The notes under the pieces were generated by a model. The model was not told the DNA's origin. It searched no databases and saw only the letters and a list, made by a program, of their open reading frames with translations. The position numbers were made by a program, and so were the translations under genes. This document shows positions 1 to 64,000 of a stretch of 64,000 nucleotides of DNA, piece by piece (the stretch's first letter is position 1; each line of letters starts with the position of its first letter). The DNA is from an uncultured Oscillospiraceae bacterium (GTDB lineage Bacteria; Bacillota; Clostridia; Acetivibrionales; DTU013). The DNA is taken from positions 267 through 64,266 of the forward strand of contig CAZEIH010000017.1 in assembly GCA_964512095.1 (NCBI GenBank). The letters are read 5' to 3'.

Positions 1-101
1 TAATGGATTTGAGCTAACACCCATCCTGCAGGGATGGAATGATGAAATAAACGCTGCATGTATATAAATCACATACGTGGACCAATAACACAAGCAGTCT
101 C

Positions 102-8505: not shown

Positions 8506-8513
8506 TTAACTAT

Positions 8514-46284: not shown

Positions 46285-46923
46285 CTATACCAGCTGTATA
46301 GATTCCTTTGTACTTGATTTTAATCTGTAATGATACTCATTCATTTCTCGTCCCTCTTTTGTAATATAGGACTTGTTCAATTCAAAGTAGTTTTTAATAT
46401 AAAAAGCATTTACTGAATCATTATTGAGCTTATCTGTTTCAAGCTTTATATAACTGAATCCATTACCATCAACTGACTCTTTTAGTGCATTAATAAGCAA
46501 TGTGCCTATACCCTTGTTTTTTGTTTCGGGGAGCACACCGATAGAGGATAGCTCAATATATGCTTCATCCCTGCTACTATCTTTGGAATATGTAAATGCT
46601 CTTAATATCCTGAACATTACCCTCGGCTTTCTAAAAAATGCTAACACACTGTAAAATGCAAAGGGAAAAAGACTTCTCCTAATTAGGTACCTATAAAAAC
46701 CGCTAATGTCCCTTGAATAGGCCAAAAAGCCTACAAGTCTGCCCTTGTCAAATGCACCTATTACATTTGATTCCTTATGGCTTATATATCCTTTATATAA
46801 ATGCTTTAAAAATCCCCTGCCTAAAAAAGTGAGAAAAAAGCCAGGAAATGTTCTTATATGAATGTCAACAATATCATCTACATATTGGTTTGAGCCTAAA
46901 GCTTCAATTTTCACTACTAACAC
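46285..46923 (-). CDS. GNAT-family N-acetyltransferase
   Basis: Acetyl-CoA motif region PETKNKGIGTLLINAL. 212 aa. Confidence 0.75.
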   Translation of the reverse strand: MLVVKIEALGSNQYVDDIVDIHIRTFPGFFLTFLGRGFLKHLYKGYISHKESNVIGAFDKGRLVGFLAYSRDISGFYRYLIRRSLFPFAFYSVLAFFRKPRVMFRILRAFTYSKDSSRDEAYIELSSIGVLPETKNKGIGTLLINALKESVDGNGFSYIKLETDKLNNDSVNAFYIKNYFELNKSYITKEGREMNEYHYRLKSSTKESIQLV

Positions 46924-47818
46924 TCCTGGTTTTTACTACATCTGTATCTGCATCTGCATCCTTTTTAACTAGTGCATAAACTGTTCTAAGCATAGTCTTG
47001 ATATTACCCATAAATGAAAACCTCTCAATATCACCTAAATTGAACTTCATCTTATCTGGCAACACCAGATTCATATAAACCACATCAACATCAGCAGCAG
47101 CAGTAGCAGTAGCAGTAGCAGCAGCAGTAGCAGTAGCAGTAGCAGTAGCAGTAGTAGTAGCAGTAGCAGCAGCACCAGTAGCATCGCCAGTAGCATCACC
47201 AGTAGCACCAGTAGCACCAGTATCATCAACCTCATAAACCCCATCAAGATTATCAGCTACTTTGAGTATACTTTCCTCATCCTTGTACTCGATACTTGCA
47301 TTTGAGGTAACACCGGCTGGCAGCAGCAGAGTTGCCAGCATTTCATCGGTATACAGCTCTACATATTTGACAACCTCCGGGCGAGTACCTACAAAGCTCA
47401 TATCGCCTTTAATTATATTCAAAAGCTGGGGTATTTCGTCGAGACGATATTTTCTTAAGCTCCTGCCGATTCGGGTAATTCTCACATCGTCACTCCTTGT
47501 GACTTGTGAACCAATTTTCTCAGCATTTTTAACCATTGTTCTAAATTTGAATATAGTAAAATGTCTTCCATATTGGGTTACTCTTGTCTGCTTGAATAGT
47601 ACAGAGCCTTTAGAGTCCAACCTTATGATTATACTTAGTATTAAAAACACCGGCGACAGAAGTATCAGGAAAATAGCAGAGGTGACTATGTCAAATAACC
47701 TCTTAACGAATAAGCTTAGCTTTTTCTTTTCCAATATGTCATAGTACCTTCTGACCTCAGTATTCTTCATGAATTCAGGCAACTTATCCCATTGTCGTAG
47801 CATCACCTTTATCTGCAC
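46904..47818 (-). CDS. PglC/WbaP-C-type monotopic phosphoglycosyl (priming) transferase
   Basis: Bac_transf motifs: a re-entrant helix, FKFRTM and DEIPQLLNIIKGDMSFVGTRP. Carries a ~45-aa (Gly/Asp/Ala/Thr)n insertion. Confidence 0.85.
   Translation of the reverse strand: MQIKVMLRQWDKLPEFMKNTEVRRYYDILEKKKLSLFVKRLFDIVTSAIFLILLSPVFLILSIIIRLDSKGSVLFKQTRVTQYGRHFTIFKFRTMVKNAEKIGSQVTRSDDVRITRIGRSLRKYRLDEIPQLLNIIKGDMSFVGTRPEVVKYVELYTDEMLATLLLPAGVTSNASIEYKDEESILKVADNLDGVYEVDDTGATGATGDATGDATGAAATATTTATATATATAAATATATAAADVDVVYMNLVLPDKMKFNLGDIERFSFMGNIKTMLRTVYALVKKDADADTDVVKTRSVSSEN
47092..47222 (-). repeat. GCT/ACT tri/hexanucleotide coding repeat
   Basis: Minus strand (GCTACT)n, (GCT)n and GGTGMTACT units encode TGATGATGDATGDATGAAATATTTATATATATAAATATATAAA. 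Confidence 0.9.
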
Positions 47819-49272: not shown

Positions 49273-49526
49273 AAGTCATCGAAATTTGTATGCATAAGTT
49301 CATCTTGATTGGTTAATTATTGCCTCTTATGTCATTTTAATGATTATGGGGTTATTTGTCAATATGCTATTTGCATAACAATTGGTTCAAAATTATTATG
49401 AAGTTTAGTATTTAAGCAGTGACATAGATAAATTTTTTTATGAATGTGCAATAATAGGTATTCCTTTTGTTGGCAATATGTATTACAATATGTATGTGTA
49501 CAAATTTTGTAAACAGGAGTGGTAAA

Positions 49527-52010
49527 ATGTTTATTTATAAGAAATTATCCTTTATTTTAATTGCTGCATTGATTTTTTCTATATTAATCCCATTTCCTGC
49601 AACAGCAAAAGAGGCTGTAGATGTAACTGAAAAAATTCAGCTTTTAGGGAAGCCTGCTCAATCTCAGCCCTATGCTAGAAATATTTGGGACATGCAGGTC
49701 TTCAAGGGGAAGCTATACGTCTGCTGTGGCAACAGCAGCAATAATGCTCCCGCATCTAACGCAGGGCCAATTGATGTTCTTAGCTATGATTCCGTTAAAG
49801 GCATTAGTAAGGTTTATACAGTCAACGAAGAGCAGGTTGATATCTTCAGAGTCATCAACGAAGTTCTATACATTCCCGGACATGATTCAAAGGATTCCTG
49901 GGATTTTGGCAATTACTACATCTTAAGCGATAGCTGGAAGAAGGTTAGGACAATTCCACAGGGCGTCCATGTCTATGATATGGCTGGCTACAATGGAAAG
50001 CTATACGCTGCTACCGGCACCAATGGCTACAGTGAGGTGGTAGTCTCTAGCGATAACGGCCTTACCTGGAATAAAGCAGCCCCTGAGGATGGAACCATCT
50101 TTCACACCACAGGCTACAGAGCCTATACCATGTTTGAATTTAAAGATGTTTTGTATGCATCCAGCAAGTTTATGGGAGTATCAAGCAATTGCAATAACAT
50201 GCTAAAAATAACCAAAGAAGGTATTACTTCTATTAATGTAGAAGGTCTAAAAATGATGCCGGGGTTGCCATCGTCTACCATGTATGCCAGCTGTAAACTT
50301 ATCAGACCTGTTGAGTTCAAGGATAACTTGTTGTACATAGGCGCTGAGATACACAATGATCATCAATATATACCACTCGCTTTGTATGCTTCCAGCAATA
50401 TTGGAGATGCCAGGATAATAACCCTTCCTGAAAGCACTGCTCTGCCCTATGATATTATTACACGCGATTCCCTTATATACGTTCTCGCCAGTGTTAAAGT
50501 CTCTGACAGCTCTTTTAAAAACTTAGTGTATAAGAGCACTGATTTAAATACCTGGGAGCAGGTGCTTAGCTTTAACAGTAGTGCCTTTGCCCGATCCTTT
50601 GAAGAAATAAATGGTGATTTCTTCTTTGGACTTGGCTGTGACACGGCTTATATGCCTGAATCATCGGGTAATATATTGAAGGTAAGTAAGTCCGCATATG
50701 CACCTACTCAAGTAGTGCAAGCTGTGACCAAGCAGGAGCAGGAGCCTGCGCTTAAAACTCAGTCAGAAGCCAACTCTGGGACGAAGACGGAGGCTAAATC
50801 GGAAACCAAGACTAAATCTGAAACCACATCGGCAGCTAAGTCGGAAACCAAGGCAGAGACCAAATCTGAGACCACATCAGTAGCTAAGTCGGAGGCGAAG
50901 TCCGAGACTAAATCAGAAACCATGGCAGAGACCAAATCAGAAACCAAGGCCGAGACTAAATCTGAGGCCACATCGGTAGCTAAGTCAGAGGCGAAGTCCG
51001 ATACTAAATCAGAAACCATGGCTGAGACCAAATCAGAAACCAAGGCCGAGACTAAATCTGAGGCCACATCTGTTGCTAAGTCAGAGGCGAAGTCCGATAC
51101 TAAATCAGAGACCACATTGGTAGCTAAGTCGGAGGCGAAGTCCGATACTAAATCTATTGAAGAAACCGCGACGATTGGCACCACAGAAAACAATACGCAA
51201 GCTAATAACCCTACCTCATCAAAATCCTCGACTGAGGTCAGTAGAAGCAGCAGGCAGTCATTTGCTAACTCTTCTTCAATAAATGTAAGCAGCAAGCTTA
51301 TGTCAACCGGCATTCAGCTAACTAAGCCCATTACCGCCAATACATCAGAACTCCAGATATTCGGTAGTACCTTGTATCTTTTACAAGAAAACACCTCTGA
51401 GCCAAGTATCATTGGTATAGATCTTGCCAAAGGCGCATTGATTAGTAATGCTGCAGCTGATTCCACCTATAAAAAGAACCAATTAGCGAATAATAAATCT
51501 CATACAACCAAAGAAAATATGGAGTCCTTAAAATTAGCAGTTACGAACATGTTACCTGTTTTGTCGGTCTATAACTCTATAGACATATTCAAAGCTATAA
51601 AAACTGAAGGCTATGAAATATATATTCCAGCTAAGAAAACAATTAGAAAACGGGTCGCCTCCATCGGTTTATACGTTACATCCTTAGGAGGCTCTTCAGG
51701 AGACTCTTCAGGAGGTTCTTCACGCCGCATTAACTTCAACAGCTCTGATGCAAAGCCCTGTGACATAATTATCCGAGATTCCGATGTCTATGTGTTGGCA
51801 GTGGAGGAATACGAAGACAATACCTTCAGAAGCATTGTTTGTCAAAGTAGAGATTTAGTTAACTGGACAGAGCTATTTGTTTTTACCAATGAAGCACCTG
51901 CAGTATCATTTGAGGAACACAATGGTGATTTCTACTTCGTACTTAACTGCGATGAAAAAAATAAATCTGCGTCAAATAAACTAATGAAGGTTAGTAGAAA
52001 TGATTATTAA
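49527..52010 (+). CDS. secreted repeat protein with Asp-box (BNR-like) motifs
   Basis: AGGAG lies 7 nt before ATG 49527. Signal peptide MFIYKKLSFILIAALIFSILIPFPATA. One Asp-box SSDNGLTW, a central (KSETKAE…) repeat block, and a C-terminal ~85 aa that duplicates residues about 330-415. Confidence 0.7.
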   Translation: MFIYKKLSFILIAALIFSILIPFPATAKEAVDVTEKIQLLGKPAQSQPYARNIWDMQVFKGKLYVCCGNSSNNAPASNAGPIDVLSYDSVKGISKVYTVNEEQVDIFRVINEVLYIPGHDSKDSWDFGNYYILSDSWKKVRTIPQGVHVYDMAGYNGKLYAATGTNGYSEVVVSSDNGLTWNKAAPEDGTIFHTTGYRAYTMFEFKDVLYASSKFMGVSSNCNNMLKITKEGITSINVEGLKMMPGLPSSTMYASCKLIRPVEFKDNLLYIGAEIHNDHQYIPLALYASSNIGDARIITLPESTALPYDIITRDSLIYVLASVKVSDSSFKNLVYKSTDLNTWEQVLSFNSSAFARSFEEINGDFFFGLGCDTAYMPESSGNILKVSKSAYAPTQVVQAVTKQEQEPALKTQSEANSGTKTEAKSETKTKSETTSAAKSETKAETKSETTSVAKSEAKSETKSETMAETKSETKAETKSEATSVAKSEAKSDTKSETMAETKSETKAETKSEATSVAKSEAKSDTKSETTLVAKSEAKSDTKSIEETATIGTTENNTQANNPTSSKSSTEVSRSSRQSFANSSSINVSSKLMSTGIQLTKPITANTSELQIFGSTLYLLQENTSEPSIIGIDLAKGALISNAAADSTYKKNQLANNKSHTTKENMESLKLAVTNMLPVLSVYNSIDIFKAIKTEGYEIYIPAKKTIRKRVASIGLYVTSLGGSSGDSSGGSSRRINFNSSDAKPCDIIIRDSDVYVLAVEEYEDNTFRSIVCQSRDLVNWTELFVFTNEAPAVSFEEHNGDFYFVLNCDEKNKSASNKLMKVSRNDY
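50760..51155 (+). repeat. tandem coding repeat, 90-nt period (Lys/Ser/Glu/Thr/Ala-rich)
   Basis: The 30-aa unit SVAKSEAKS(E/D)TKSETMAETKSETKAETKSEAT is repeated nearly identically, with shorter 6-8-aa sub-repeats on both sides. Confidence 0.9.
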
Positions 52011-52465
52011 AATAAACGCCTAAGGCGGTAATACATCCTCATCACCATCTTTCTGACAGGTATAATTAGAAGCCATAATCCTACTAAACATCTTAAAAGC
52101 ATATTATTGCAATCAATAATATGCTTTCCCCTTCTTATCCTGGAAACAGTAGCAATCAACTGGTGAGATACAAGAGGCCCTTCTACCCACTGCTGCGCGT
52201 CACCTATTATATAAAAGCTACTCTCTTCCTTTTTCATTACTCTGTGCATTACATATTCGCCTGTCAATCGTTTAATTAGAACGATATCTCCCCTTTTCAC
52301 AGAATCGTAGGAATTGCTTGCAAGCTCTACACTGTCCTTACCTTCACGTAGAAATGGATACATACTCATCCCGGTTACCGTTATCCAGGCCTTTTCACCA
52401 TTATTCAGTATCTCAGCGACCAAACTAAACAGTTCTGCCGCCTTCACCTTTACAAGCTCATGCAT
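52007..52465 (-). CDS. S24/S26-type serine peptidase-like protein, C-terminal TM
   Basis: TGMSMYPFL (GxSMxP Ser box), GDIVLIKR (Lys box) and the hydrophobic tail LLRCLVGLWLLIIPV. Overlaps the upstream gene by 16 nt. Confidence 0.65.
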   Translation of the reverse strand: MHELVKVKAAELFSLVAEILNNGEKAWITVTGMSMYPFLREGKDSVELASNSYDSVKRGDIVLIKRLTGEYVMHRVMKKEESSFYIIGDAQQWVEGPLVSHQLIATVSRIRRGKHIIDCNNMLLRCLVGLWLLIIPVRKMVMRMYYRLRRLF

Positions 52466-53346
52466 TTATACACCAACTCCACAGCTTCATAGTCAGGGCG
52501 GCATTGTAGCAGATAAACGGGAACTGTTTCTACCAGCTTTTCAATGACCTTAATAGTTGCCTCCATTAATCCTCCATCAAAGTATGGGAGAAAGCACCGA
52601 GGCATCAACATTTCCAGCGCTCTGGCCATATCGAGTCTTTCAATCCTATTCTCAGATGACCGGGTCAGCATCACAACACCCTCCAATGGTACCTTCAAAT
52701 TAGCAAATATATCTGTTGAACCACTCCAGGGCGTACCACACAGCATCGGCTTGCCCTCAAGGAAACGAATAACCGGTCTATCGTCATTCAAAAGTGTAAC
52801 TCTGTCTCCGTACCTTTCCTTCCACAGCCCTGTATGTGTTGACTTGCCTGTACCTGAAGGAGCAGATACAATAACACCCTTACCGTCTATTGCAAATGAG
52901 GAGGAATGTACAGTAATGCTATCCATACTAATCATTGCGTTTCTGTATGCTATACCTGTGAGCTGAAATGTGTGGTAATCATTCCATTTGACACGTCTAT
53001 TATCACTTATGGGATAAGTCAAATCAGACTCTATGTATCTAATGGATATATTCCTCCAAAAATAATCTGCTTCAAGAATGGTGTCAAACTCCAGATTTCT
53101 TGTACTTGTCATAGCTATGAAAAAACCGTTGTCAGGAGCTTTTTTTCTATACCATCTTGATGTTTCATCAAGTATCAGATCACCATCAGGAATAACAATG
53201 TTATCCACCTTTTCCGATTTAACAATCAAATCGACAGCTGAAGCCGACGTATCCGATGCTTCCATTTTGAATATGGCTCCTCTTTCTTCAAACAGATCGT
53301 TGGATCCTATAAATTCGACAATAATACCAGCAATGTTGTAAAGCAA
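52450..53346 (-). CDS. HPr-kinase-C-terminal-domain-like P-loop protein
   Basis: VHSSSFAIDGKGVIVSAPSGTGKSTHTGLW resembles the HprK C-domain motif (H-A-S…G…G-x-S-G-x-GKS). TTG start at 53346, 9 nt after AGGAG. Confidence 0.65.
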   Translation of the reverse strand: MLYNIAGIIVEFIGSNDLFEERGAIFKMEASDTSASAVDLIVKSEKVDNIVIPDGDLILDETSRWYRKKAPDNGFFIAMTSTRNLEFDTILEADYFWRNISIRYIESDLTYPISDNRRVKWNDYHTFQLTGIAYRNAMISMDSITVHSSSFAIDGKGVIVSAPSGTGKSTHTGLWKERYGDRVTLLNDDRPVIRFLEGKPMLCGTPWSGSTDIFANLKVPLEGVVMLTRSSENRIERLDMARALEMLMPRCFLPYFDGGLMEATIKVIEKLVETVPVYLLQCRPDYEAVELVYKCMSL

Positions 53347-53427
53347 ATTTATTCACTCCTGACAATTACATAATATAATAGCTTAGAGAAATTCCCTTAT
53401 GCAGGCTGAGCCTTCCTTTTGGTTCAG

Positions 53428-53524
53428 TCAATTCGCATCGCTCAGGGAGTCAGGTGGAGACTGAACTCCGCTTGACCAAGGAAGTTAATTATTGAGTTCA
53501 GCGTCTCCTGAAGACATAGATAAA
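53428..53524 (-). repeat. full-length copy of the dispersed repeat (inverted relative to 57323 and 59445)
   Basis: TCAATTCGCATCGCTCAGGGAGTCAGGTGGAGACTGAACTCCGCTTGACC…CCTGAAGACATAGATAAA. About 85% identical to the reverse complement of 57323-57425. Confidence 0.85.
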
Positions 53525-53528
53525 GGGC

Positions 53529-53560
53529 AAAATAAAAGGGATTGTACAATTAACAACCCC
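53529..53560 (-). terminator. rho-independent terminator directly after the second precursor gene
   Basis: Minus RNA reads GGGGUUGU-UAAUUGU-ACAAUCCC-UUUUAUUUU. The G·U pair would be an A·C mismatch on the plus strand, so the orientation is minus. Confidence 0.7.
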
Positions 53561-53581
53561 CCATTAAAGACATACATAATA

Positions 53582-53710
53582 TTAGGAATTCAAACCTACC
53601 CAGGTATTATACTCTGCAGAGCAAGCCCCATCATAGTATGTACATGTACAAACTCTCTCATCTGCGCGTAGTTCTACACAGTTTATTTCGGGAGCAACAT
53701 ATTTTTTCAT
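53582..53710 (-). CDS. putative RiPP precursor peptide A2 (42 aa)
   Basis: Not in the ORF track. AGAGGTG lies 7 nt before the ATG. Sequence: MKKYVAPEINCVELRADERVCTCTYYDGACSAEYNTWVGLNS. Confidence 0.75.
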   Translation of the reverse strand: MKKYVAPEINCVELRADERVCTCTYYDGACSAEYNTWVGLNS

Positions 53711-53746
53711 TGTTTTTCACCTCTTTCCTCTTCAAGTTTGTATTTC

Positions 53747-53893
53747 TCACGAATCGCTAAGGGCTATAAGACCAACCATTGTGGGAATGTTTTGAACCTC
53801 CCATGTAGTACAACTTCCTGTGCAATTGCTGGCTATACGCTCCTCAACTCTTAGCTCTACACATGATAGTGTAGGTGTAACATATGCTTTCAT
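53747..53893 (-). CDS. putative RiPP precursor peptide A1 (48 aa)
   Basis: Not in the ORF track. AGGAGGG lies 7 nt before the ATG, 30 nt after the rSAM stop. Sequence: MKAYVTPTLSCVELRVEERIASNCTGSCTTWEVQNIPTMVGLIALSDS. Confidence 0.75.
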   Translation of the reverse strand: MKAYVTPTLSCVELRVEERIASNCTGSCTTWEVQNIPTMVGLIALSDS

Positions 53894-53923: not shown

Positions 53924-55051
53924 TCAATATTCTACATCCAGCTCCTTGCGGGCTTTTGCAGTCTCGCAAAGATATGGGGCTGGTTTAGTGAAGCTGCCTG
54001 TTTCAACCTTCAGTCTTGCAGGACAAGCCATGCATTTTGAGCGAAGGTCGCAATTATCACATTCCTTGCAGGAAGGTACATCCAGGCAGGATTTCTTTAG
54101 CAGTTCCCAAGATTTCGAAAATCCAAGACTCTTTACGTCGAACCAGGGATCTGTCAATAAGCCGCAAGGCGTCAATCTGCCATCCCAGGTCAACCAAAAG
54201 GCACCCTTCCCCGCCGTACATCTAAAGGCGGACGAAGCAGTCATATGCGGTATCTCTCCCACTAACTCATTAAGCTGGCCATCTGTCATAACATCATTAT
54301 TTACTGATAGCTCAGCCCTCTTCCTTGTTTCTTCCCGGTCCATGAGCTTTAATCTGAAGTCCTGAATCATTTTCTCATACCTTGCCAGCTCCAGAGGACC
54401 AAGCCTGCAGTTTTCAGGATCAGTGCCACAGCCCTCTCTCCTTGGCGCAACATAGTTGACTATGCCCAGTTGCCCTCCAAGACTGTCTGCTAAAGAATAT
54501 ATCTCCTCAAATTCACTACTATTTTCATCTATAACAGTGGTCTTTAGCTCTACCTTAATATTCTCAGCTAATAGCAGCTTTATTGCATTTACCGTATTGT
54601 GGAAGCCCTCCGGGTGTCCTGTGACTCTACCATAGGTCTCTGGACTTGCCCCATAAAGTGTAATGCTCACCTTTGATGGTGGCCTCTTCCCCAATCTGTG
54701 TGCCTTTTCAGCGTCTATGAGACCTCCGTTAGTATAGAGGGTAATACTCATTCCCATTTCTGAAAGAGCCTCGTATATCTCAAAGAAGTCCTTTCTCATG
54801 AATATCTCTCCACCGGTTAATGTCATAAAAATGAGCCCTGCATCTCTGGCCTGCCTTCCCAATGAAATCCACTGTGATGCTGTCAGCTCGTTTTCAAGGA
54901 ATGCTTTATCATCTGGCACACTGCATACGTAGCACATTTTGCAATGAAAGCTACATCTGGCTGTCAATTCAAAAAAACCTGATGCAGGATTCCCTACAAT
55001 AATTGACCTGTCAATTAAATTTTTGTATAATTGAGCCCATGACATACTCAT
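53924..55051 (-). CDS. radical SAM / SPASM-domain peptide-modifying enzyme
   Basis: CSFHCKMC (CxxxCxxC) near the N-terminus. The Cys-rich C-terminus is FRCTAGKGAF…TPCGLL…CLDVPSCKECDNCDLRSKCMACPA…YLCE. Overlaps the PqqD-like gene by 4 nt. Confidence 0.85.
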   Translation of the reverse strand: MSMSWAQLYKNLIDRSIIVGNPASGFFELTARCSFHCKMCYVCSVPDDKAFLENELTASQWISLGRQARDAGLIFMTLTGGEIFMRKDFFEIYEALSEMGMSITLYTNGGLIDAEKAHRLGKRPPSKVSITLYGASPETYGRVTGHPEGFHNTVNAIKLLLAENIKVELKTTVIDENSSEFEEIYSLADSLGGQLGIVNYVAPRREGCGTDPENCRLGPLELARYEKMIQDFRLKLMDREETRKRAELSVNNDVMTDGQLNELVGEIPHMTASSAFRCTAGKGAFWLTWDGRLTPCGLLTDPWFDVKSLGFSKSWELLKKSCLDVPSCKECDNCDLRSKCMACPARLKVETGSFTKPAPYLCETAKARKELDVEY

Positions 55052-55335
55052 TGTTGGTCCCCGCCATCTGCTGTTTCCAGTAGATTTTTCTGATGCAGTG
55101 TATCTAAAAACCTGATAACATCATTTTTTGCAGTTGCCTCGTCGATATCATATTCTTCAAGCAAAGCTGATACTAATTGCTGAGTGTTGGCATCACTTTC
55201 CATCAGGCGCCATAAAATCGCACCACTTTCACTTAGCGTCATTATTCCGTTGAATTCTACAACTCTTGCCCCCAATGGAACAACTACCCATTGCTTGGCA
55301 ATCTCCCGTAACATGAAACCGCTTTTGACCTTCAT
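55048..55335 (-). CDS. PqqD-family protein (RiPP recognition element)
   Basis: 95 aa. FMLREIAKQWVVVPLG…FNGIMTLSESGAILWRLM…LVSALLEEYDID…AKNDVIRFLDTL matches the PqqD-like winged-helix pattern. Confidence 0.8.
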   Translation of the reverse strand: MKVKSGFMLREIAKQWVVVPLGARVVEFNGIMTLSESGAILWRLMESDANTQQLVSALLEEYDIDEATAKNDVIRFLDTLHQKNLLETADGGDQQ

Positions 55336-55557: not shown

Positions 55558-57255
55558 TTAGACAGTCAGTAATTTTCTATTCTCCCTTTCCGGTTCTAAA
55601 AACCCCTCCCTAAGTCTGAATACTTTACTACAGCTATTTAGGGCAGTCATTCTGTGAGTAATCATTATACAGGTTCGAGCATGGCCTATTCCCTGTATAC
55701 TTTGTAATACCTTCTCTTCCAGCTCTATATCAAGGGCTGAGGTAGCCTCGTCAAGTATTATAATCGGCGCCTTCCTAAGATAGGCCCTGGCTATTGCTAT
55801 TCTCTGGGCCTGGCCTTCAGAAAGCCCGTATGCTTTTTCTCCAATAACAGTGTTAATTCCATCTGGAAGCTTTTCGACAAATTCCAGCGCACAGGCTGCT
55901 TTTAATGCTTCCTTCATTTCACTCTCACTTGCCTCCTGCTCTCCTGTGCGCAGATTGTCAGCTATTGTTCCACTTAATAATGTATTTCCTTGAGGAACAT
56001 ACGAGAACCAGCTTCTTGTGGCACATGTAATTTCACTTTTTTCGTCCCTTTCATTGAAACAGTAGATACTTCCAGCATCAGGCTTTAAAAGAGCAAGCAT
56101 GAGGCGTATTATCGTTGTTTTACCTTCGCCGGAGCTTCCTATTATGGCTACTATTTCACCTGGCAACGCCTCCATTGAAATATTATTCAGTACAATTTCA
56201 TCATCTTCATAGCTAAAGCTGACATTTTCAAATTTAATCCCTACCGAGCCAGGAGTCTCCAGTAGCTCATCAGTTACCTCTGTATTCAGCCTCTCAAGCT
56301 CTATCAACCTGCCTGCAGATGCCAGTGCTGCAATAATCTGAGGCAGCATCCTTGAAAGACCCATAAAGGGAGCCTGAACCTGATTGACAAGCTGCAGGAA
56401 GGCGGTCATTGTACCGTAAGTCGCTGTCCCCCTGGCTACCTTCACTATACCCCAGCCAAAGGCTGACCCATAGCCAAGCCAGTATCCAATAGACATTATG
56501 GTGCTAGCCATTACTCCGGCTTTGCTTCGCTTTGTCACCAGCTCTAGCTTTTCCTTTTGCAGCTCTCCAATTTTCTTCTTGCTATTTTCTTCAAGATTAA
56601 AGGTCTTAATAACCAGAAGGTTCTGCAGGTATTCCTGCATTTGAGACCGGTAAGTACTTTCGGTTTCCTGTATCTGTATGTGCATTTTGCCAAGTCTTCT
56701 GCCATAAAATCTGCTCACAAGTATCGTAAATGGCGCAAGTACAAATGCAAGTATCGCTAAGCTCTTGTCATAAACCATAAGTGTCACAAATGCCGCCGTT
56801 AGCTGTACTCCTAAGGAAATGATCTGTGGCAGTACGCTAATTGAACCGTTTGTAACAGAATTAATGTCGCTTGTCAAACGGGTCAGAAGATCACCACTGT
56901 GATATCTTGAGACCTGGGCCCACTCAATGTTTATCAGCTTTGCAAAAATACCCTGCCGCATATCATTGGAGTACCTTTCATGAACTCTTGCTGTATACAC
57001 TGTAAGAAATGCACGGGAAATTTGCATAAATAAAATCACACTCACAAATAAAGCGATGTTAGGTCCAGCACTTTTTAATCCATCATAAATAGCACTGTCT
57101 ACGAGATTTTTTGACGCTACCGCCATTAAAACTGAGGCAATAGCAGCCAAAGATTCCACAGCTATTATGAGAATAAGGGCTCCCAGGTATGGCCTTATGC
57201 TTGCAGCTAACCATCTGATATTGGATAAACTCTTTATTACTTTCTTAATGTTCAT
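55558..57255 (-). CDS. ABC exporter, fused permease/ATPase (no C39 peptidase domain)
   Basis: 565 aa with 6 TM helices, Walker A GSSGEGKTT, signature LSEGQAQR and Walker B IIILDEATS. Confidence 0.9.
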   Translation of the reverse strand: MNIKKVIKSLSNIRWLAASIRPYLGALILIIAVESLAAIASVLMAVASKNLVDSAIYDGLKSAGPNIALFVSVILFMQISRAFLTVYTARVHERYSNDMRQGIFAKLINIEWAQVSRYHSGDLLTRLTSDINSVTNGSISVLPQIISLGVQLTAAFVTLMVYDKSLAILAFVLAPFTILVSRFYGRRLGKMHIQIQETESTYRSQMQEYLQNLLVIKTFNLEENSKKKIGELQKEKLELVTKRSKAGVMASTIMSIGYWLGYGSAFGWGIVKVARGTATYGTMTAFLQLVNQVQAPFMGLSRMLPQIIAALASAGRLIELERLNTEVTDELLETPGSVGIKFENVSFSYEDDEIVLNNISMEALPGEIVAIIGSSGEGKTTIIRLMLALLKPDAGSIYCFNERDEKSEITCATRSWFSYVPQGNTLLSGTIADNLRTGEQEASESEMKEALKAACALEFVEKLPDGINTVIGEKAYGLSEGQAQRIAIARAYLRKAPIIILDEATSALDIELEEKVLQSIQGIGHARTCIMITHRMTALNSCSKVFRLREGFLEPERENRKLLTV

Positions 57256-57322: not shown

Positions 57323-57425
57323 ATTTTATCTATGTCTTCAGAAGACGTTGACCTCTGAATTAATTAACTTCCTTGGTCAGATGGAGTTCAGTCTCCACCT
57401 GACTCCCTGAGCGAAGTGAATTGAT
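57323..57425 (+). repeat. full-length copy of the dispersed ~103-nt repeat
   Basis: 97/103 identical to 59445-59547. Contains the GTCTTCAGAAGAC palindrome, TTAATTAA and the hairpin GGTCAGATGGAG-TTCAGT-CTCCACCTGAC. Confidence 0.9.
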
Positions 57426-59360
57426 ATGCCTTCTTGTTTTTATGAAACCTTTGTTCTCTTGTATTGCTTTGTATGATCTAGTTGCCTGTTCGCTTTCATA
57501 TAAATCCATATCCTGTATCTCAGGTATAAAATAATCCTTCGTGTATCTGTATGTCGGTACAAGCTTAGCCATGGTTTCTCTGAGCATTTCATCGTTCTCC
57601 ATGGAATTTTCCAACGCCTTAATACACATGATAACTTCTTGGAAGCTTATATCATGCTGTTTGCCGATAAATATCTTTTCATGGGCAGTTTTCTCCAGTC
57701 CCTCCTCTGCCATCAGTAGCTCCTCGTAGAGCTTCTCTCCAGGCCGCAAGCCTGAGTATTCTATCTTTATATCCACATACGGTTCAAAGCCTGACAGGCT
57801 AATAAGATCCCGGGCTAAATCTGCAATTTTAACAGGCTCGCCCATGTCAAGCACAAATACCTCACCGCCCTCCCCCAGCGCTCCTGCCTGAATCACCAGC
57901 TGAGCAGCCTCAGGTATGGTCATGAAGTAACGTATAATATCAGGGTGAGTGACTGTGACAGGGCCCCCCTGAATAATTTGCTTCTTGAATAGCGGTATGA
58001 CACTACCATTACTACCTAGAACATTACCAAAGCGGACAGCTGCGAATTTGGTTTCACTCATTCTATTCATGGATTGGACAATAATCTCAGCCAGACGCTT
58101 TGATGCGCCCATTATATTAGTAGGGTTTACTGCCTTGTCGGTAGACACAAGTATGAATTTCTTTGTTCCAAAGTCTATCGCCCGCCTACAGGTATTTAGC
58201 GTACCGAATACATTGTTCTTTATAGCTTCCGAAGGATTTCCCTCCATCAATGGCACATGCTTGTGGGCTGCCGCATGGAATACAACTCCCGGCCTATAGC
58301 GCTCAAATATCTCCCTGAGCCTTCCACGGTCCCTACAGGAGCCTATGAGGACTTCCAAGTCAAGCTTATCCTTGTACGTATAGACCAGCTCATTTTGTAA
58401 ATCGTAAGCGTTGTTTTCGTAAATATCAAATATAACCAGCTTTTTTGGCTCAAATTTAGCAATCTGCCTGCAAAGCTCTGAGCCTATGGATCCCCCACCG
58501 CCTGTCACTAACACTACTTCATCCTTGAGGTATCCGGATATTTCGTCCATATTGAGAGTAATCTCGTCACGTCCCAAAAGATCTTCTATATCTACATCCC
58601 TAAGCTGATTGGCTGTCAATTCCCCATCAATTATATCCATCATGTTGGGAAGTGTTTTTAGCTTGCATTTGGTATCCTTGCTTATCCTTAACAAATCAGC
58701 AACATCCCGCTTTGAAGCCGATGGTATGGCAACTACTATCTCATCTATTTTGTACTGCTTTGCTATCTCCCTGATTCTCTCTCTTCCTGATACCACCGGA
58801 ATATTATTAATACAGGTACCATGCTTTGTTATATCATCATCTACCACTACAACTGGTACCAGGTTCATATCGTTATGGTTTTTGAACTCCTTTATTAACA
58901 TAGAGCCTGCACTTCCAGCACCAACCATCATAACCCTGCTGGGCTTACGGTTGTTCCTTTGCAAATAAAGCCTTGCTCTGCGAAGATATCTGCATCCAAT
59001 CCTAACAGAACCAATAAGCATACATAAAAATATCCATGAAATTATGTGTATGGATATTGGGTATGTCCTTCCTGTCAACTGGCTTATTAGTAATCCAAGC
59101 CCTGTAGCTGTGATGGTTCCAACTGTAATCTGCATCATTTCCTCTATGCTTGCATATTCCCAAAGGCTTCTATAGAGTCCGAAAAAATAGAATACAACAA
59201 TTTGAACAATGCTAATCATCAGTGCATTTCTTAAGAAGTTATCAAAGTATTTCTGCGGTATGGCTATATCAAATTTTATGAGCAATGCAAGGCATAGTGA
59301 AATATTTACTATTAAAGCATCTGCTATGACAAGTACAATTTTTCTTAATTTAACTGACAT
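57360..59360 (-). CDS. PglF/CapD-type membrane-anchored UDP-sugar 4,6-dehydratase
   Basis: Four N-terminal TM helices, VLVTGGGGSIGSEL and FGNVLGSNGSVIP (Polysacc_synt_2). ATG 59360 follows GGGAGG. The last 22 codons lie inside the repeat. Confidence 0.85.
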   Translation of the reverse strand: MSVKLRKIVLVIADALIVNISLCLALLIKFDIAIPQKYFDNFLRNALMISIVQIVVFYFFGLYRSLWEYASIEEMMQITVGTITATGLGLLISQLTGRTYPISIHIISWIFLCMLIGSVRIGCRYLRRARLYLQRNNRKPSRVMMVGAGSAGSMLIKEFKNHNDMNLVPVVVVDDDITKHGTCINNIPVVSGRERIREIAKQYKIDEIVVAIPSASKRDVADLLRISKDTKCKLKTLPNMMDIIDGELTANQLRDVDIEDLLGRDEITLNMDEISGYLKDEVVLVTGGGGSIGSELCRQIAKFEPKKLVIFDIYENNAYDLQNELVYTYKDKLDLEVLIGSCRDRGRLREIFERYRPGVVFHAAAHKHVPLMEGNPSEAIKNNVFGTLNTCRRAIDFGTKKFILVSTDKAVNPTNIMGASKRLAEIIVQSMNRMSETKFAAVRFGNVLGSNGSVIPLFKKQIIQGGPVTVTHPDIIRYFMTIPEAAQLVIQAGALGEGGEVFVLDMGEPVKIADLARDLISLSGFEPYVDIKIEYSGLRPGEKLYEELLMAEEGLEKTAHEKIFIGKQHDISFQEVIMCIKALENSMENDEMLRETMAKLVPTYRYTKDYFIPEIQDMDLYESEQATRSYKAIQENKGFIKTRRHINSLRSGSQVETELHLTKEVN

Positions 59361-59444
59361 CTCATTTTCCTCCCGTGTTTTGCGCAGCAATCTCTACACT
59401 GGCCTATTCATGTACGTATAACACTAATTTATATATTCAAAATC

Positions 59445-59547
59445 ATTTTATCTATGTCTTCAGAAGACGCCGACCTCTGAATTAATTAACTTCCTTGGTC
59501 AGGTGGAGTTCAGTCTCCACCTGACCTCCTGAGCGAAGCGAATTGAT
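59445..59547 (+). repeat. full-length copy of the dispersed ~103-nt repeat
   Basis: Contains a perfect 12-bp hairpin GGTCAGGTGGAG-TTCAGT-CTCCACCTGACC. It sits in the loaP-to-capD leader. Confidence 0.9.
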
Positions 59548-59632
59548 TTAGTCCAAAAAAGGCATGGTTTTACCAATTGTATATATATTGCTCCTATACA
59601 ATGGCATCACTAGCCTTTGACCTCCTACTCTC

Positions 59633-59655
59633 ATACCGGGCCGAAACACCGATAT
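59633..59655 (-). promoter_or_regulatory. hairpin with conserved 9-nt loop (copy 1) in the polysaccharide-operon leader
   Basis: Plus strand reads ATACCGG-GCCGAAACA-CCGATAT and can be extended to 11 bp. On minus-strand RNA the stem is fully paired with one G·U. Confidence 0.45.
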
Positions 59656-59732
59656 GGGACTTGGATTTTGTTTAAAGCCTTTACAACGATAGCCCCGGGT
59701 TATCGATAGATGTGAGTAATTCATCAGTCCTT

Positions 59733-60257
59733 CTATATTGGTTTCAGGATAGAAATCCCTAGATCTACTGTCCTTTCTTCTCCAAGGAAATCCAGCCGTA
59801 TCTTAGCTCTTTCTTTGCGATGGTCTATACTAATAATTACCCCTTCAAGGGAAAAGAGAGGACCGTCTACCACTTGAACTCTCCCATTCTCTATCAGCAC
59901 ATTCGAAAAACCAATTTCTTCGTTATTAGAAATCAAGCTGGACAATACAGCCATTTCTCGGCGGTCTATACTTGCCACTGAATTTCCTGTCTTTAGTAAT
60001 CTAATTACATTTGGTATGTTCTTTAAACCATAATACGTATCTGGAGTTATATCACCATTAATTAAAACATAGCCGGGAAACAAGACCCTTGTTTCTACCC
60101 TCCATATGCCGCCCTTCCTGACCCGCAGCTTTCTTTTGGGTACCACTACGGTATAGTCATCACCCAATCTATACCTGACTCTCTCCTTTGCCCTCTCCTC
60201 TTCACCTGTAACAACAAACACACCATGCCATTCATCTAATCGTGAATCATACAACAT
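59733..60257 (-). CDS. loaP: NusG-paralogue transcription antiterminator (LoaP-like)
   Basis: 174 aa. NGN-like N-terminus (WHGVFVVTGEEERAKERV…LFPGYVLI) and a KOW-like C-terminus (VQVVDGPLFSLEGVIISIDHRKERAKIRL). It is the first gene of a polysaccharide locus. Confidence 0.7.
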   Translation of the reverse strand: MLYDSRLDEWHGVFVVTGEEERAKERVRYRLGDDYTVVVPKRKLRVRKGGIWRVETRVLFPGYVLINGDITPDTYYGLKNIPNVIRLLKTGNSVASIDRREMAVLSSLISNNEEIGFSNVLIENGRVQVVDGPLFSLEGVIISIDHRKERAKIRLDFLGEERTVDLGISILKPI

Positions 60258-60410: not shown

Positions 60411-60645
60411 GGGAGACGGTTCGGTTCGGGGACGGTTCTCACCTTTGGAGACGGTTCCCACCTTTGGGGACAGTTCGTTCGGGGCCAGTTCGTTCGGGGC
60501 CAGTTCGTTCGGGGACAGTTCTCACCTTTGGGACAGTTCGGTTCGGGGACGGTTCTCACCTTTGGGACGGTTCGGCTCGGGGACGGTTCGTTCGGGGACA
60601 GTTCTCACCTTTGGGGACAGTTCGTTCGGGGACGATTCTCACTTT
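60411..60645. repeat. tandem array of 14 units of two types (15 nt and 19 nt)
   Basis: 8 units are GGGGAC(A/G)GTTCGTTC-like and 6 are GGGGAC(A/G)GTTCTCACCTTT-like, and the two types are interleaved. The last unit overlaps the stop codon of the AI-2E transporter gene. Confidence 0.9.
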
Positions 60646-61691
60646 GCGATTGCCTCAACTGTTTTATTAATCAACACCCTGATTATAGCCATTACAGGTA
60701 CGGCTAGGAGCATACCTGTGATTCCAAAAAACTCTCCGCCCACAAGGACTGCAAATATTGTGGCAACAGGATGAAGTCCCATCCGTCCTTCTATCATTTT
60801 GGGTGAAATAAAACTGTTATCGATTTGCTGCACAGTAAGAAAAACCACGATGGTCCAAACCGCCTTCATTGGCGATATTGTTAGGGCAACAGCAACAGCA
60901 GGTATTGCTCCAATGTATGGACCAAAGTAAGGAATCACATTGGCCAATCCACCGAGCATACCAAGAACTAGAGGATATCGCATACCAACTATAATAAGTC
61001 CGATAGTTTCCAGTATACCTATAATAAATGAAATAACCAGCTGCCCCTGAATAAATCCGGCAAGAATCCTGTTAATCTCCTTGAATACAAAAGTTAGGCC
61101 ATTCCTCCAGTGTCTTGGGAACAACAGTAAAGTATACTCTTTAAACCTTTCCCCATCTTTTATAGTGTAATATGTAATAACTAGCGCAATAGTTATGTCT
61201 ACAATGATTTTCACCATATCAACAACAAGGTTTAGACCATCCTCCAGCAGTCTAACAAGAAATGACTGCAACTTGTCCATAACATTTGTTATCTGATCAA
61301 ATATAGCATCTTTAACCTGCTCTGACCAGTTAGTAGAATCGATAGTAGAGAGTAGACCATTTAATGTGTTTTCATAGCTTAACATAAGCTGTGGTAACGT
61401 TTCCATCAGTTCTCGGATGTTTGTAGCCAGTTCAGGAATCAGGTATATACCCACAGCCACCAACAGCGCCAATATAAACAAGTAAACAACCAATATAGAT
61501 ATACCCACCGGTATCCTTTTGGCAATCAGCCTGTCTGACAAAGGCTTTACTATGTATACCAGCATTACCGTGACAAAAAACGGTGATAGGACTCTTACTA
61601 TTTTACCCCAATATGTATATATGAAAAAAACTGATGCTGTTATCATCAAAATCAAGATAAGGTAGAATAATAGCTTCTTATATCGTGCCAC
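60639..61691 (-). CDS. AI-2E family transporter (PerM/UPF0118)
   Basis: 350 aa with about 8 TM helices and GGLANVIPYFGPYIGAIPA. GTG start lies 6 nt after AGGAGG. Confidence 0.8.
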   Translation of the reverse strand: MARYKKLLFYLILILMITASVFFIYTYWGKIVRVLSPFFVTVMLVYIVKPLSDRLIAKRIPVGISILVVYLFILALLVAVGIYLIPELATNIRELMETLPQLMLSYENTLNGLLSTIDSTNWSEQVKDAIFDQITNVMDKLQSFLVRLLEDGLNLVVDMVKIIVDITIALVITYYTIKDGERFKEYTLLLFPRHWRNGLTFVFKEINRILAGFIQGQLVISFIIGILETIGLIIVGMRYPLVLGMLGGLANVIPYFGPYIGAIPAVAVALTISPMKAVWTIVVFLTVQQIDNSFISPKMIEGRMGLHPVATIFAVLVGGEFFGITGMLLAVPVMAIIRVLINKTVEAIAK

Positions 61692-63040: not shown

Positions 63041-64000
63041 ATGAAAAATATATTTAAGAGGCTTGGAGTACACATTCCGGAGATTCTACTGCCTGTGGAT
63101 GGCACAGATTTAACCAAATGGGCAGTCATAGCCTGCGATCAATACACCTCACAGCCGGAATACTGGGATAAGGTAAGTGAAGGGGTTGGCCAAAACCCTT
63201 CTACGCTTAAACTGACCTTTCCTGAGATTTATCTGAAGGATGACGATAAGGACAAAAGAATTGAAAGTATTAATAAGACTATGGAGGAATATCTTATCCA
63301 GGGCACTCTTGAACCGCAGGATCCGGGGTTCATTCTTGTAGACCGCAGTACACCCCATACATCCTCAAGGAAGGGGCTAATTATTGCACTTGATCTGGAA
63401 TGCTACGACTACAGACCCGGTGCTCAAACCCTCATACGGGCAACTGAAGGGACGGTTCTTGACCGTATACCGCCAAGAGTAAGAATTCGTGAAAATGCAC
63501 CAATTGAGCTGCCTCATATTATGGTACTGATTGATGACCCAGATAAAACAGTAATAGAAGGCCTTTATGCTAAAGCTGAAGCTGGAGGCTTTAAGAAGCT
63601 ATATGATTTTGAATTAATGCAAGGCGGTGGCCATATAAAGGGATGGAAGGTCGATGACAAAGAAAGCCTGTCAATGGTAGCCAAGGCCTTCAACAAACTA
63701 GAGCGCGGTGGCTGCCCCTGCGGTAGCGATACCATTGGGGACGATACCATTGGGGACAGTTCTCACCTGCCCTGTAACCTTCTCTTTGCAGTTGGCGATG
63801 GAAATCATTCTCTTGCTTCCGCAAAGGCCCACTGGGAAAATGTCAAGGCTAGCCTTATTAAAGATACTAATGAACCAATTCCAGAACATCCTGCAAGATA
63901 CGCTTTGGTAGAGCTAGTAAATGTACACGATGATGGCTTGGTTTTTGAACCAATTCATAGAGTTCTTTTTAATATAAATGCAACAACAATCCTCGAAATG
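63041..64000 (+). CDS. DUF1015-family protein (3'-truncated by the window end)
   Basis: GGGAGG lies 10 nt before ATG 63041, and the frame is open to the window end (320 codons). Missing from the track because it has no stop. Motifs CDQYTSQPEYW and AVGDGNHSLASAKAHWE are typical of DUF1015. Confidence 0.8.
   Translation, partial: MKNIFKRLGVHIPEILLPVDGTDLTKWAVIACDQYTSQPEYWDKVSEGVGQNPSTLKLTFPEIYLKDDDKDKRIESINKTMEEYLIQGTLEPQDPGFILVDRSTPHTSSRKGLIIALDLECYDYRPGAQTLIRATEGTVLDRIPPRVRIRENAPIELPHIMVLIDDPDKTVIEGLYAKAEAGGFKKLYDFELMQGGGHIKGWKVDDKESLSMVAKAFNKLERGGCPCGSDTIGDDTIGDSSHLPCNLLFAVGDGNHSLASAKAHWENVKASLIKDTNEPIPEHPARYALVELVNVHDDGLVFEPIHRVLFNINATTILEM
63727..63768 (+). repeat. 15-nt tandem units of the GGGGAC family inside the DUF1015 CDS
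   Basis: CGATACCATTGGGGA occurs twice and is followed by CAGTTCTCACCT. The last part is identical to the long unit of the 60411-60645 array. Confidence 0.8.

Follow-up and report, generated by a model that had tools for sequence, protein, structure and literature searches.

Can one and the same peptide be crosslinked by a radical SAM (rSAM) enzyme and phosphorylated on a Ser side chain, and if so, on which Ser? The question is raised by a stretch of 64,000 nucleotides from an uncultured Oscillospiraceae bacterium (hereafter the window, at its full length), in which two short precursor peptides, A1 and A2, are encoded together with an rSAM enzyme and a remote homologue of HPr kinase (HprK). 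RiPP phosphorylation is rare and, to our knowledge, HprK-like phosphorylation was known before 2026 only as a tailoring of lasso peptides. Judging from sequence, this RiPP cluster would combine an rSAM maturase with the phosphorylation set of linear polyphosphorylated peptide (LPP) or paeninodin-type systems, allowing the RRE-guided phosphorylation of a Ser, most likely the C-terminal one, of a thioether-crosslinked peptide; we put the probability of this reading at about 0.5. If true, it would extend the phosphorylation chemistry to rSAM-crosslinked peptides of Clostridia, with 11 loci (that of the window included) and 27 distinct precursors.

Two precursor peptides ending in serine

All genes of the cluster lie on the minus strand, in the order MsbA-like exporter, PqqD-family RRE, rSAM/SPASM enzyme, A1, A2, kinase-like protein and signal-peptidase-like protease, and the whole is embedded in a capsule/EPS locus. 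Precursor A1 (53893..53747, minus strand; 48 aa) is made of the leader MKAYVTPTLSCVELRVEER and a core carrying CTGSC, and ends in ...LIALSDS followed by a TGA stop. Precursor A2 (53710..53582, minus strand; 42 aa) has an A1-type leader and the core motif CTCTYYDGAC, and ends in ...WVGLNS followed by a TAA stop. The first-pass annotation had pointed out that both peptides terminate in Ser (A1 ...LSDS, A2 ...GLNS), which is confirmed here for two genes that are real and are each preceded by a ribosome-binding site in the raw sequence: AAGGAGG, 8 nt 5' of the start of A1, and AGAGGTG for A2. The two share the leader MK.YV.P.L.CVELR..ER and have homologues in more than 30 other loci, and are therefore not chance ORFs. 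A leader HMM run on the whole window recognized A1 (E = 2e-13) and A2 only, hence no third precursor. A1 (P0123) occurs on 4 contigs, and the terminus (G/N)(L/A)(N/Q)S of A2 (P0131) is kept in 10/10 A2-type orthologues.

Modification, proteolysis and export genes

The gene between the RRE and the precursors encodes a radical SAM/SPASM enzyme (53924..55051, minus strand; 375 aa; Pfam Radical_SAM, E = 3.5e-19), the presumed crosslinking maturase, whose sequence displays C33xxxC37xxC40 and a C-terminal cluster of Cys. Its NCBIfam matches to SPASM families are full-length and all far below cut-offs (77 and 75 bits against the ScmE and ScmF models, for a cut-off of 400), and none of the curated sacti- or ranthipeptide maturase cut-offs in NCBIfam is reached. 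The discrete RRE of the PqqD family (55048..55335, minus strand; 95 aa; Pfam PqqD, E = 5.7e-18), similar to LppB and B1 proteins, has lasso_PqqD_Bac as best NCBIfam match, and matches TbiB1 and 9x90 ('lasso peptide biosynthesis PqqD family chaperone') in the PDB; BLASTP against LPP and lasso RREs from the supplement of PMC13381572 gave E-values from 1e-6 to 2e-11.

At the other end of the cluster lies an archaeal/SipW-type, signal-peptidase-I-like (SpI-like) S24/S26 protease (52007..52465, minus strand; 152 aa; Pfam Peptidase_S24), a candidate LppS-like leader peptidase. TIGR02228 is its best match (E = 6.9e-10), and BLASTP against 8 LppS-family sequences gave E-values between 6e-15 and 6e-8; the catalytic Ser and His of that family correspond to Ser34 and His74 in the alignments. 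Export may be ensured by an MsbA-like, LppD-like ABC transporter (55558..57255, minus strand; 565 aa; Pfam ABC_membrane and ABC_tran, without a C39 peptidase domain), whose top NCBIfam matches are TIGR02203 and TIGR02204. Directly upstream of the RiPP genes are a CapD-like Polysacc_synt_2 gene and a NusG paralogue (57360..60257, minus strand), two neighbours that recur in loci L081-L087, L089 and L091. Finally, an NTP_transf_5 nucleotidyltransferase (29149..30351, minus strand; 400 aa; PF14907, E = 7e-48), possibly equivalent to LppN or PsmN, is encoded 22 kb from the peptide cluster, in the same capsule locus and on the same strand; the clusters of L001, L002 and L004 contain homologues of it (163-199 bits), as do those of L090 and of 10 other loci.

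As the first-pass annotation had stated, the window holds no lasso cyclase: a Pfam scan of its ORFs of at least 180 aa, save a 184-aa ORF (50759..51313, minus strand) antisense within an 847-aa gene, revealed neither an Asn-synthetase-like cyclase nor a B2 transglutaminase-like protease domain, smaller ORFs, such as a B2-type protease could have, being covered within the cluster only. The idea that the P-loop protein could act as an analogue of the lasso cyclase and activate a carboxylate so that a macrolactam forms was dropped because the cores have no conserved Asp or Glu at a fixed ring distance.

A ScmC-family protein with HprK-type catalytic residues

The putative peptide Ser kinase, with a role similar to that of LppK or PadeK, is a 298-aa P-loop protein of the ScmC family (52450..53346, minus strand), translated from a TTG start preceded by an AGGAG site and overlapping the next gene by 16 nt. 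Its relationship to HprK is remote. The local Pfam scan of the protein returned no match, including to Hpr_kinase_C (PF07475), a model touched by only 8/94 members of its family (best E = 0.03), while its precomputed Pfam family is PF27840 'ScmC'. In NCBIfam, the best matches are ScmC (TIGR04249) and HprK_rel_A (TIGR04352), both weak and limited to residues 133-182, with an ScmC equivalog score of 18.3 bits for a cut-off of 125. PDB sequence searches with the protein or with its 94-sequence profile gave generic P-loop matches only. Its AF2 model (pLDDT 95) has ATP-dependent PEPCK (E = 1.6e-6) and HprK/P (E = 5e-5) as best PDB matches, consistent with an HprK/PEPCK fold.

The hhalign comparison with B. 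subtilis HprK (E = 2.6e-5, with a manually entered HprK sequence) places H147...APSGTGKST...NDD on H...GKSGVGKSE...ADD, i.e., the HprK-type His, Walker A (S164-T170) and Asp-Asp (D188-D189) are in register. H147, G165, G167, K168, S169, T170, N187 and D189 are invariant and D188 is nearly so. Thus, of the HprK C-domain P-loop initially proposed, the P-loop itself and its HprK register stand, but the similarity is remote and below the Hpr_kinase_C Pfam threshold; the catalytic residues, namely the His, the Walker-A Lys and Ser and the Asp-Asp, are kept.

Such remote similarity, the naming of the family after an uncharacterised rSAM cassette and the capsule genes surrounding the cluster would also suit a protein with a role other than peptide phosphorylation, for instance as an ATPase or scaffold of the rSAM/RRE complex or in the processing of a capsule intermediate; the terminal Ser would then be kept for export, proteolytic trimming or the rSAM crosslink. 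We nonetheless regard this as unlikely. Conservation of the HprK-type His and Asp-Asp goes beyond a bare P-loop, proteins recognized by TIGR04249/TIGR04352 form the family of the proven kinase LppK (PMC13381572), and the kinase-like protein accompanies a precursor, an RRE and a leader peptidase in dozens of loci, mostly without rSAM; the conserved neighbours are housekeeping genes in Bacteroidales, and CpsB/CpsD-type capsule genes adjoin the Clostridia loci. The ScmC-like family is large (12,725 clusters at 50% identity, E <= 1e-3) and almost entirely uncharacterised, so that a peptide-kinase role, if assigned, would annotate thousands of clusters from gut and rumen.

Conservation of the module in other genomes

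The order PqqD-rSAM-A1-A2-K-S24 (K, kinase-like protein) is strictly kept in 11 loci, including the window, with a single RRE per module. In 80 genome loci whose kinase-like protein is 42% identical or less to that of the window, the order is mostly precursor-K-PqqD-S24-ABC, which matches the lppAKBSD order of LPP (PMC13381572). Core composition follows the presence of the rSAM gene: Cys-type cores of rSAM loci hold 2-3 Cys and a conserved CxGxC, which co-varies with the rSAM enzyme, while cores from loci without rSAM almost always lack Cys. Three rSAM loci depart from this rule by a third, Gly/Asn-rich precursor that has 0-1 Cys. Of note, proteins of about 290 aa next to the kinase in distant loci were considered as nucleotidyltransferases and rejected, as they are unrelated housekeeping genes.

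In these three loci (L001, L002 and L004), the third precursor is separate, LPP-like and adjacent to NTP_transf_5. One may thus envision that only the rSAM enzyme acts on A1 and A2, and that kinase, peptidase and exporter belong to a distinct LPP module, precursor-less or decayed, juxtaposed by chance; the leader-HMM scan indeed detected no such third precursor in the window. This is, however, very improbable given the strict gene order shared by the 11 loci, whose modules have a single RRE each, the RRE-binding YxxP leader borne by both A1 and A2, and the absence of any other leader protease, the exporter being devoid of a C39 domain.

Comparison with characterised systems

The first-pass annotation had taken its precedent from lasso peptide clusters. 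LPP, encoded by lppAKBSDN in Paenibacillus alginolyticus (Popov et al., Nat Commun 2026; PMC13381572), are in fact closer, with their set of RRE, SpI-like peptidase and MsbA-like exporter in capsule loci. There, the kinase phosphorylates core Ser3 of a linear peptide, showing that phosphorylation can be a primary modification of linear peptides, and LppN is an NTP_transf_5 enzyme (PMC13381572). The 'HprK kinase' group in Supplementary Data 2 of that study corresponds to TIGR04249/TIGR04352 and the exporter models to TIGR02203/TIGR02204. The window shares with LPP a kinase falling under these models (albeit with weak scores for the 298-aa protein, the likeness being through shared models), a discrete Tyr-type RRE binding YxxP, a SipW-type leader peptidase (TIGR02228) co-localised with the RRE gene in one operon, an MsbA-like exporter, an NTP_transf_5 enzyme, a capsule-locus setting and the lack of a lasso cyclase; most of the distant relatives of the window cluster also display the A-K-B-S-D order.

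There are nevertheless clear differences. The window cluster has an rSAM/SPASM gene between RRE and precursors, which argues that its product is not simply linear, and its cores contain Cys and the CxGxC motif. The LPP leader motif YxxPxVLxHQxIxFETxxS (Px9Fx[T/A]) is only partly retained: YxxPx(L/I) is present, but the leader ends in EER(I/V)(A/C) rather than with FET, E-E-R replacing F-x-T, and the Ser at P+15 (P+n being counted from the proline of the leader YxxP) exists in A1 only. In the clade of the window, conservation concerns the C-terminal Ser, which is invariant, and not the equivalent of Ser3. In addition, NTP_transf_5 belongs to the core operon of LPP but is 22 kb away in the window, and the hosts are Bacilli for LPP and Clostridia here.

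Paeninodin- and pseudomycoidin-type systems (PadeK, ThcoK, PsmK with PsmN) also rely on an HprK-fold kinase that acts on a linear, leader-bearing precursor, in whose core nothing but the C-terminal Ser is conserved. They further resemble the window by their leader (MKK.[Y/W]..P.LEV..), their discrete B1-type RRE and their companion NTP_transf_5 enzyme. The window differs by the absence of the Asn-synthetase-like cyclase and B2 cysteine protease, a serine SpI-like peptidase being the predicted leader remover, by its rSAM enzyme, and by a kinase of the ScmC family that falls under the Hpr_kinase_C Pfam threshold. The association of a ScmC-type P-loop protein with a PqqD-like protein and an rSAM/SPASM enzyme is reminiscent of the SynChlorMet cassette (ScmC/ScmD/ScmE/ScmF; TIGR04249-04251), which has been defined in silico only. 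Yet the window scores far below the equivalog cut-offs (18 vs 125 bits for ScmC, about 76 vs 400 for ScmE/ScmF), has one rSAM enzyme instead of the ScmE/ScmF pair, and comprises in addition an SpI-like peptidase, an MsbA exporter and a capsule setting. Sacti- and ranthipeptide systems likewise pair an rSAM enzyme of the SPASM type with short cores that contain Cys, recognise the leader through an RRE and export the product by an ABC transporter, but here the RRE is discrete instead of fused to the maturase, and the cluster also encodes a kinase-like enzyme and a leader peptidase of the SpI type.

The combination seen in the window had been put forward as uncharacterised. This needs to be qualified, as LPP already provide a case of HprK-like phosphorylation of a linear peptide, and phosphorylation outside of lasso peptides is therefore no longer unprecedented (PMC13381572). 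The association with an rSAM enzyme remains without a description that we could find: a literature search combining HPr kinase or HprK with radical SAM, PqqD, precursor peptide or SynChlorMet gave nothing relevant.

Terminal or leader-proximal serine?

A terminal Ser is present in 27/27 distinct precursors placed in the close clade of the kinase (23 with a known kinase 44-64% identical to that of the window, and 4 by peptide type only), even though the two positions before it vary, with 7 different penultimate residues, and Ser frequency in these cores is 6.4%. The paeninodin-type acceptor is also the terminal Ser of the precursor, and lasso kinases reportedly recognise little else than a Ser at the C-terminus (PMC8498205). 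A terminal phosphoserine is therefore plausible here, with the terminal Ser of A1, A2 and the 27 close-clade precursors as candidate acceptor; this invariant residue could also have another role, e.g., in export, proteolysis or crosslinking. Conservation of the terminal Ser, expected from the first-pass annotation, was initially read as absent from the 80 loci with kinases at most 42% identical, a conclusion reversed by the closer orthologues: it holds throughout the close clade and is lost where the kinase is 42% identical or less. In the more distant clade (kinase 36-43% identical), only 4/26 precursors have a terminal Ser, and those of the rSAM-containing loci L001-L004 have none.

These distant precursors instead carry a Ser shortly after the leader, at P+14 to P+18 in 26/26 and at P+14 to P+17 in 23/26. 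Ser22 of A1, at P+15, aligns exactly with core Ser3 of LppA (also P+15), and is therefore a second candidate acceptor. Hence, the kinase could target this post-leader Ser rather than the C-terminal one, the phosphate mainly serving to license cleavage of the leader by the SipW-like peptidase. Several data fit with such a scenario: LppK modifies only Ser3 and LppA is poorly cleaved without the phosphate (PMC13381572), FETVISNC in some LPP precursors recalls EERIASNC here, and (E/D)(I/V)I.xS recurs in rSAM-less loci. We consider it rather unlikely for the window, however, where A2 and all A2-type orthologues carry T, D or E at this position, with no conserved Ser nearby, and Thr is not accepted by LppK (PMC13381572). 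Moreover, a Ser occurs at P+14 to P+17 in only 13/27 precursors of the close clade, versus 27/27 for the terminal Ser. The complementary patterns of terminal and post-leader Ser between clades suggest that one acceptor Ser is always kept, and make for a natural experiment on acceptor choice, as the Ser retained is the C-terminal one in one clade and the post-leader one in its sister clade.

A possible maturation pathway

Phosphorylation of an rSAM-modified peptide on its terminal Ser could proceed as follows. Translation of A1 and A2 would yield peptides whose N-terminal leader bears YxxPx(L/I), a motif that the discrete PqqD-type RRE is predicted by homology to bind. The rSAM/SPASM enzyme would then crosslink the cysteines of the conserved CxGxC, probably through thioethers, and the ScmC-family protein would transfer phosphate from ATP, once or perhaps repeatedly, to the side chain of a Ser in the precursor. 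The acceptor would most likely be the invariant C-terminal Ser in the clade of the window, as in paeninodin-type systems, and the Ser just after the leader in more distant relatives, as for Ser3 of LppA. The distal NTP_transf_5 enzyme might, speculatively, extend the phosphate. The SipW-like peptidase, by homology with LppS, would remove the leader, assisted by the RRE, and the MsbA-like transporter would export the product.

The recurrent capsule-locus setting and the NusG paralogue hint at a link between the peptide and cell-surface polysaccharide biology. Pushed further, one can imagine a hybrid RiPP, crosslinked by the rSAM enzyme and O-(poly)phosphorylated on its C-terminal Ser, that would then offer a phosphodiester handle to NTP_transf_5 and the capsule machinery, so that the peptide would be phosphoglycosylated or even linked to the capsule polysaccharide. 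This would account for the presence of the modules inside capsule operons under a NusG paralogue, but we see such a product as decidedly doubtful.

At the RNA level, a search of the window against Rfam gave no match. Of note, a hairpin with a 10-pair stem and a T-run (TTATTTT tail) lies directly after A2 (53536..53562, minus strand), and is a possible attenuator setting the precursor-to-enzyme ratio.

Gene content of the peptide cluster

Both precursor genes, A1 (MKAYVTPTLSCVELRVEERIASNCTGSCTTWEVQNIPTMVGLIALSDS; 53893..53747) and A2 (MKKYVAPEINCVELRADERVCTCTYYDGACSAEYNTWVGLNS; 53710..53582), lie on the minus strand, are preceded by good ribosome-binding sites and encode a C-terminal Ser; they are the sole matches to the leader HMM across the 64 kb. 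On the same strand, they follow genes for an MsbA-like ABC exporter without C39 domain (57255..55558), a 95-aa PqqD protein (55335..55048) and a 375-aa radical-SAM/SPASM enzyme (rSAM; 55051..53924), and precede those for a 298-aa kinase-like protein (53346..52450) and a 152-aa S24/S26-type peptidase (52465..52007). The first-pass annotation had placed and described A1, A2 and the 298-aa gene correctly. Directly 3' of the A2 stop codon and ahead of the kinase gene, a 10-pair hairpin followed by a T-run (53536..53562, minus strand) is a possible attenuator. Judged by its predicted proteins, this system is a phosphorylation module of the LPP (linear polyphosphorylated peptide) or paeninodin type, joined to a radical-SAM maturase.

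Comparison with LPP and lasso systems

The LPP set comprises the precursor LppA, the HprK-like kinase LppK, the discrete RiPP recognition element (RRE) LppB, the archaeal-type signal-peptidase-like leader peptidase LppS, the MsbA-like exporter LppD and the NTP_transf_5 enzyme LppN, and is found within capsule loci of Bacilli (Popov et al., Nat Commun 2026, PMC13381572). That study uses TIGR04249, TIGR04352, TIGR04355 and TIGR00679 to define its 'HprK kinase' category, TIGR02228 for the peptidase, TIGR02203/4 for the exporter and NTP_transf_5 for LppN (PMC13381572); the best-matching models of the window proteins are those defining the LPP kinase, peptidase, exporter and LppN. Among the sequences available from Supplementary Data 1 of PMC13381572, eight LppS-family proteins match the window peptidase along the latter's full length (E = 6e-15 to 6e-8), with its Ser34 and His74 lining up with the family's catalytic residues, and both LPP and lasso RREs match the window PqqD protein.

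In lasso chemistry, an HprK homologue phosphorylates the Ser at the C-terminus before a nucleotidyltransferase glycosylates it (PMC8498205), which confirms the background on which the first-pass annotation had built its proposal, namely phosphorylation of the C-terminal Ser on an rSAM-modified, non-lasso peptide. That proposal is partly supported here: it withstood every sequence-level test, site and reaction both being putative. LppK, from the nearest characterised relative, instead adds one to four phosphates to another residue, core Ser3 (PMC13381572). In line with the annotation's statement that the window has no lasso cyclase, a scan of the ORFs from 180 aa upwards, covering all but one of 184 aa that lies in antisense orientation inside the gene of an 847-aa protein, found no asparagine-synthetase-like protein. 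The annotation had also called the combination, to its knowledge, uncharacterised. Literature searches pairing HprK with radical SAM gave no relevant result, and PMC13381572, supplements included, contains no mention of radical SAM or Clostridia; the 2026 LPP work is, however, a precedent for the phosphorylation of a non-lasso peptide by this gene set.

The 298-aa protein

The 298-aa protein has no match in the local Pfam library and only weak NCBIfam matches, both covering the P-loop (ScmC TIGR04249, E = 1e-3; HprK-related kinase A TIGR04352, E = 3.5e-3). A protein search returned more than 1,100 homologues, every one tagged PF27840 ('ScmC'), and 12,725 clusters were hit at E <= 1e-3 when a profile was run against 1.84 billion representatives. 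Across 94 aligned sequences, H147, A162, G165, G167, K168, S169, T170, N187, D189, G204, P206, W207 and G209 are invariant, and P163, S164, T166, H171, D188, T205 and S208 show conservation of 90% or more. AlphaFold2 models the protein with confidence (pLDDT 95), and the PDB structures that match this model best are those of ATP-dependent PEP carboxykinases (E = 1.6e-6) and HPr kinase/phosphorylases (E = 5e-5). An hhalign comparison with a sequence taken as that of B. subtilis HprK pairs HSSSFAIDGKGVIVSAPSGTGKST...LLNDD with the HprK stretch ...LVADD (E = 2.6e-5). On these motifs, fold matches and alignment register, we assign the protein to the HprK/PEPCK P-loop kinase fold as a remote member in which the catalytic His, the Walker-A Lys/Ser and the Asp-Asp pair are all retained; the residues whose loss would have spoken against a kinase are thus all present. 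The earlier claim of an HprK-type P-loop stands as remote fold kinship with motifs in register, but the protein falls outside Pfam Hpr_kinase_C. One related module (L018) carries two ScmC-family paralogues (46..969 and 1852..2754), accompanied by S24 and PqqD genes.

Related loci

Scanning genomes yielded 80 related loci, with kinases at most 42% identical to that of the window. In most of them, a small ORF with an MK.Y.KP.hE.VEL-type leader precedes the kinase-like gene, which is usually followed by PqqD, S24 peptidase and MsbA-like ABC genes; just six (L001-L004, L010 and L059) carry an rSAM gene. Contigs of closer homologues (kinase 44-64% identical) were then fetched and, with L083 counted out as a duplicate of L082, the synteny PqqD-rSAM-precursor(s)-kinase-S24 recurs in 10 further distinct loci, often flanked by CapD, ABC and NusG genes. 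Two PqqD-rSAM-precursor modules share a contig in L081 (4159..12897) and in L085 (1561..9287), on either side of NusG and CapD-like genes, which suggests module duplication within the capsule locus.

Candidate acceptor serine

C-termini vary among the 80 genome-scan loci, which had suggested that the terminal Ser is not conserved; the closer homologues overturned this, since all precursors in the 10 closer loci end in Ser, as do 8/8 additional peptides of these types from a precursor profile search. Conservation in orthologous precursors therefore depends on the clade. Group I (kinase at least 44% identical where known) comprises 27 distinct precursors, four of them placed by peptide type alone, their contigs being too short to include the kinase, and group II (L001-L004 type, kinase 36-43% identical) comprises 26. 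A terminal Ser is found in 27/27 group I precursors but in only 4/26 of group II; conversely, Ser occurs at P+14 to P+17, counted from the proline of the leader YxxP motif, in 13/27 and 23/26, respectively, and extending the range to P+18 gives 26/26 in group II (three P+18 cases read by eye). In group I, the terminal Ser follows seven different penultimate and nine antepenultimate residues, and at other core positions Ser has a frequency of 6.4%. The two groups thus complement each other, every precursor retaining a Ser at one of two places, the C-terminus or just past the leader, and this pattern fits a putative Ser-directed kinase whose acceptor site would differ between clades.

The terminal Ser is the only one common to A1 and A2 types and is therefore the best candidate acceptor in the window's clade, as first proposed. 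The rival candidate is Ser22 of A1, which lies at P+15, the same spacing as Ser3 of LppA, but A2-type peptides carry T, D or E there.

Maturation and export

The conserved CxGxC cysteines are the most likely target of the rSAM enzyme; Cys-containing cores are almost restricted to rSAM-bearing loci, setting aside a Gly/Asn-rich third precursor type. The latter, with the same leader, adjoins NTP_transf_5 in L001 (4494..4685), L002 (4827..5042) and L004 (within 8465..10228) and resembles LppA cores (GKGNGNGKNK); the leader HMM found none in the whole 64 kb of the window. By homology with LPP, where leader cleavage by LppS requires LppB (PMC13381572), the SipW-like peptidase would take off the leader with assistance from the RRE, and the MsbA-like pump would export the product.

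Capsule-locus surroundings

The peptide cluster sits within a capsule/EPS locus, with a NusG paralogue and a CapD-like gene upstream and, downstream, genes for DegT, a sugar transferase, GNAT, glycosyltransferases, Wzy, a flippase, UDP-glucose dehydrogenase, Wzz, CpsD and CpsB. Beside the last three, 22 kb from the peptide cluster, lies a 400-aa NTP_transf_5 (PF14907) nucleotidyltransferase (29149..30351, minus strand; E = 7e-48), for which a role in the peptide pathway is speculative. Its homologues lie within or adjoin the module in 13/80 genome-scan loci, and orthologues are inside the peptide cluster in L001, L002, L004 and L090; in the window, insertion of capsule genes may therefore have separated the two, or the module itself may have broken apart. 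In L023, a 540-aa S24 peptidase-NTP_transf_5 fusion (2427..4049) parallels the B2-nucleotidyltransferase fusions of lasso clusters (PMC8498205).

The 847-aa protein, predicted as secreted, is encoded convergently with the peptide genes (49467..52010, plus strand) and contains 48/96-nt repeats at 50793..51155 (KSETKAETKSE...); in L082, L086, L089, L090 and L091, the equivalent place after the S24 gene is likewise taken up by a large ORF on the opposite strand. AGCAGT-type repeats (47092..47220) in the sugar-transferase gene (46904..47818, minus strand) give the Bac_transf protein an Ala/Thr-rich low-complexity tail. Finally, an intergenic tandem array of 15-17-nt units (GGGGACAGTTCGTTC / GACGGTTCTCACCTTTG), without Rfam match, lies just upstream of the NusG-paralogue gene (60415..60646), and a short related repeat is found at 63727..63757.
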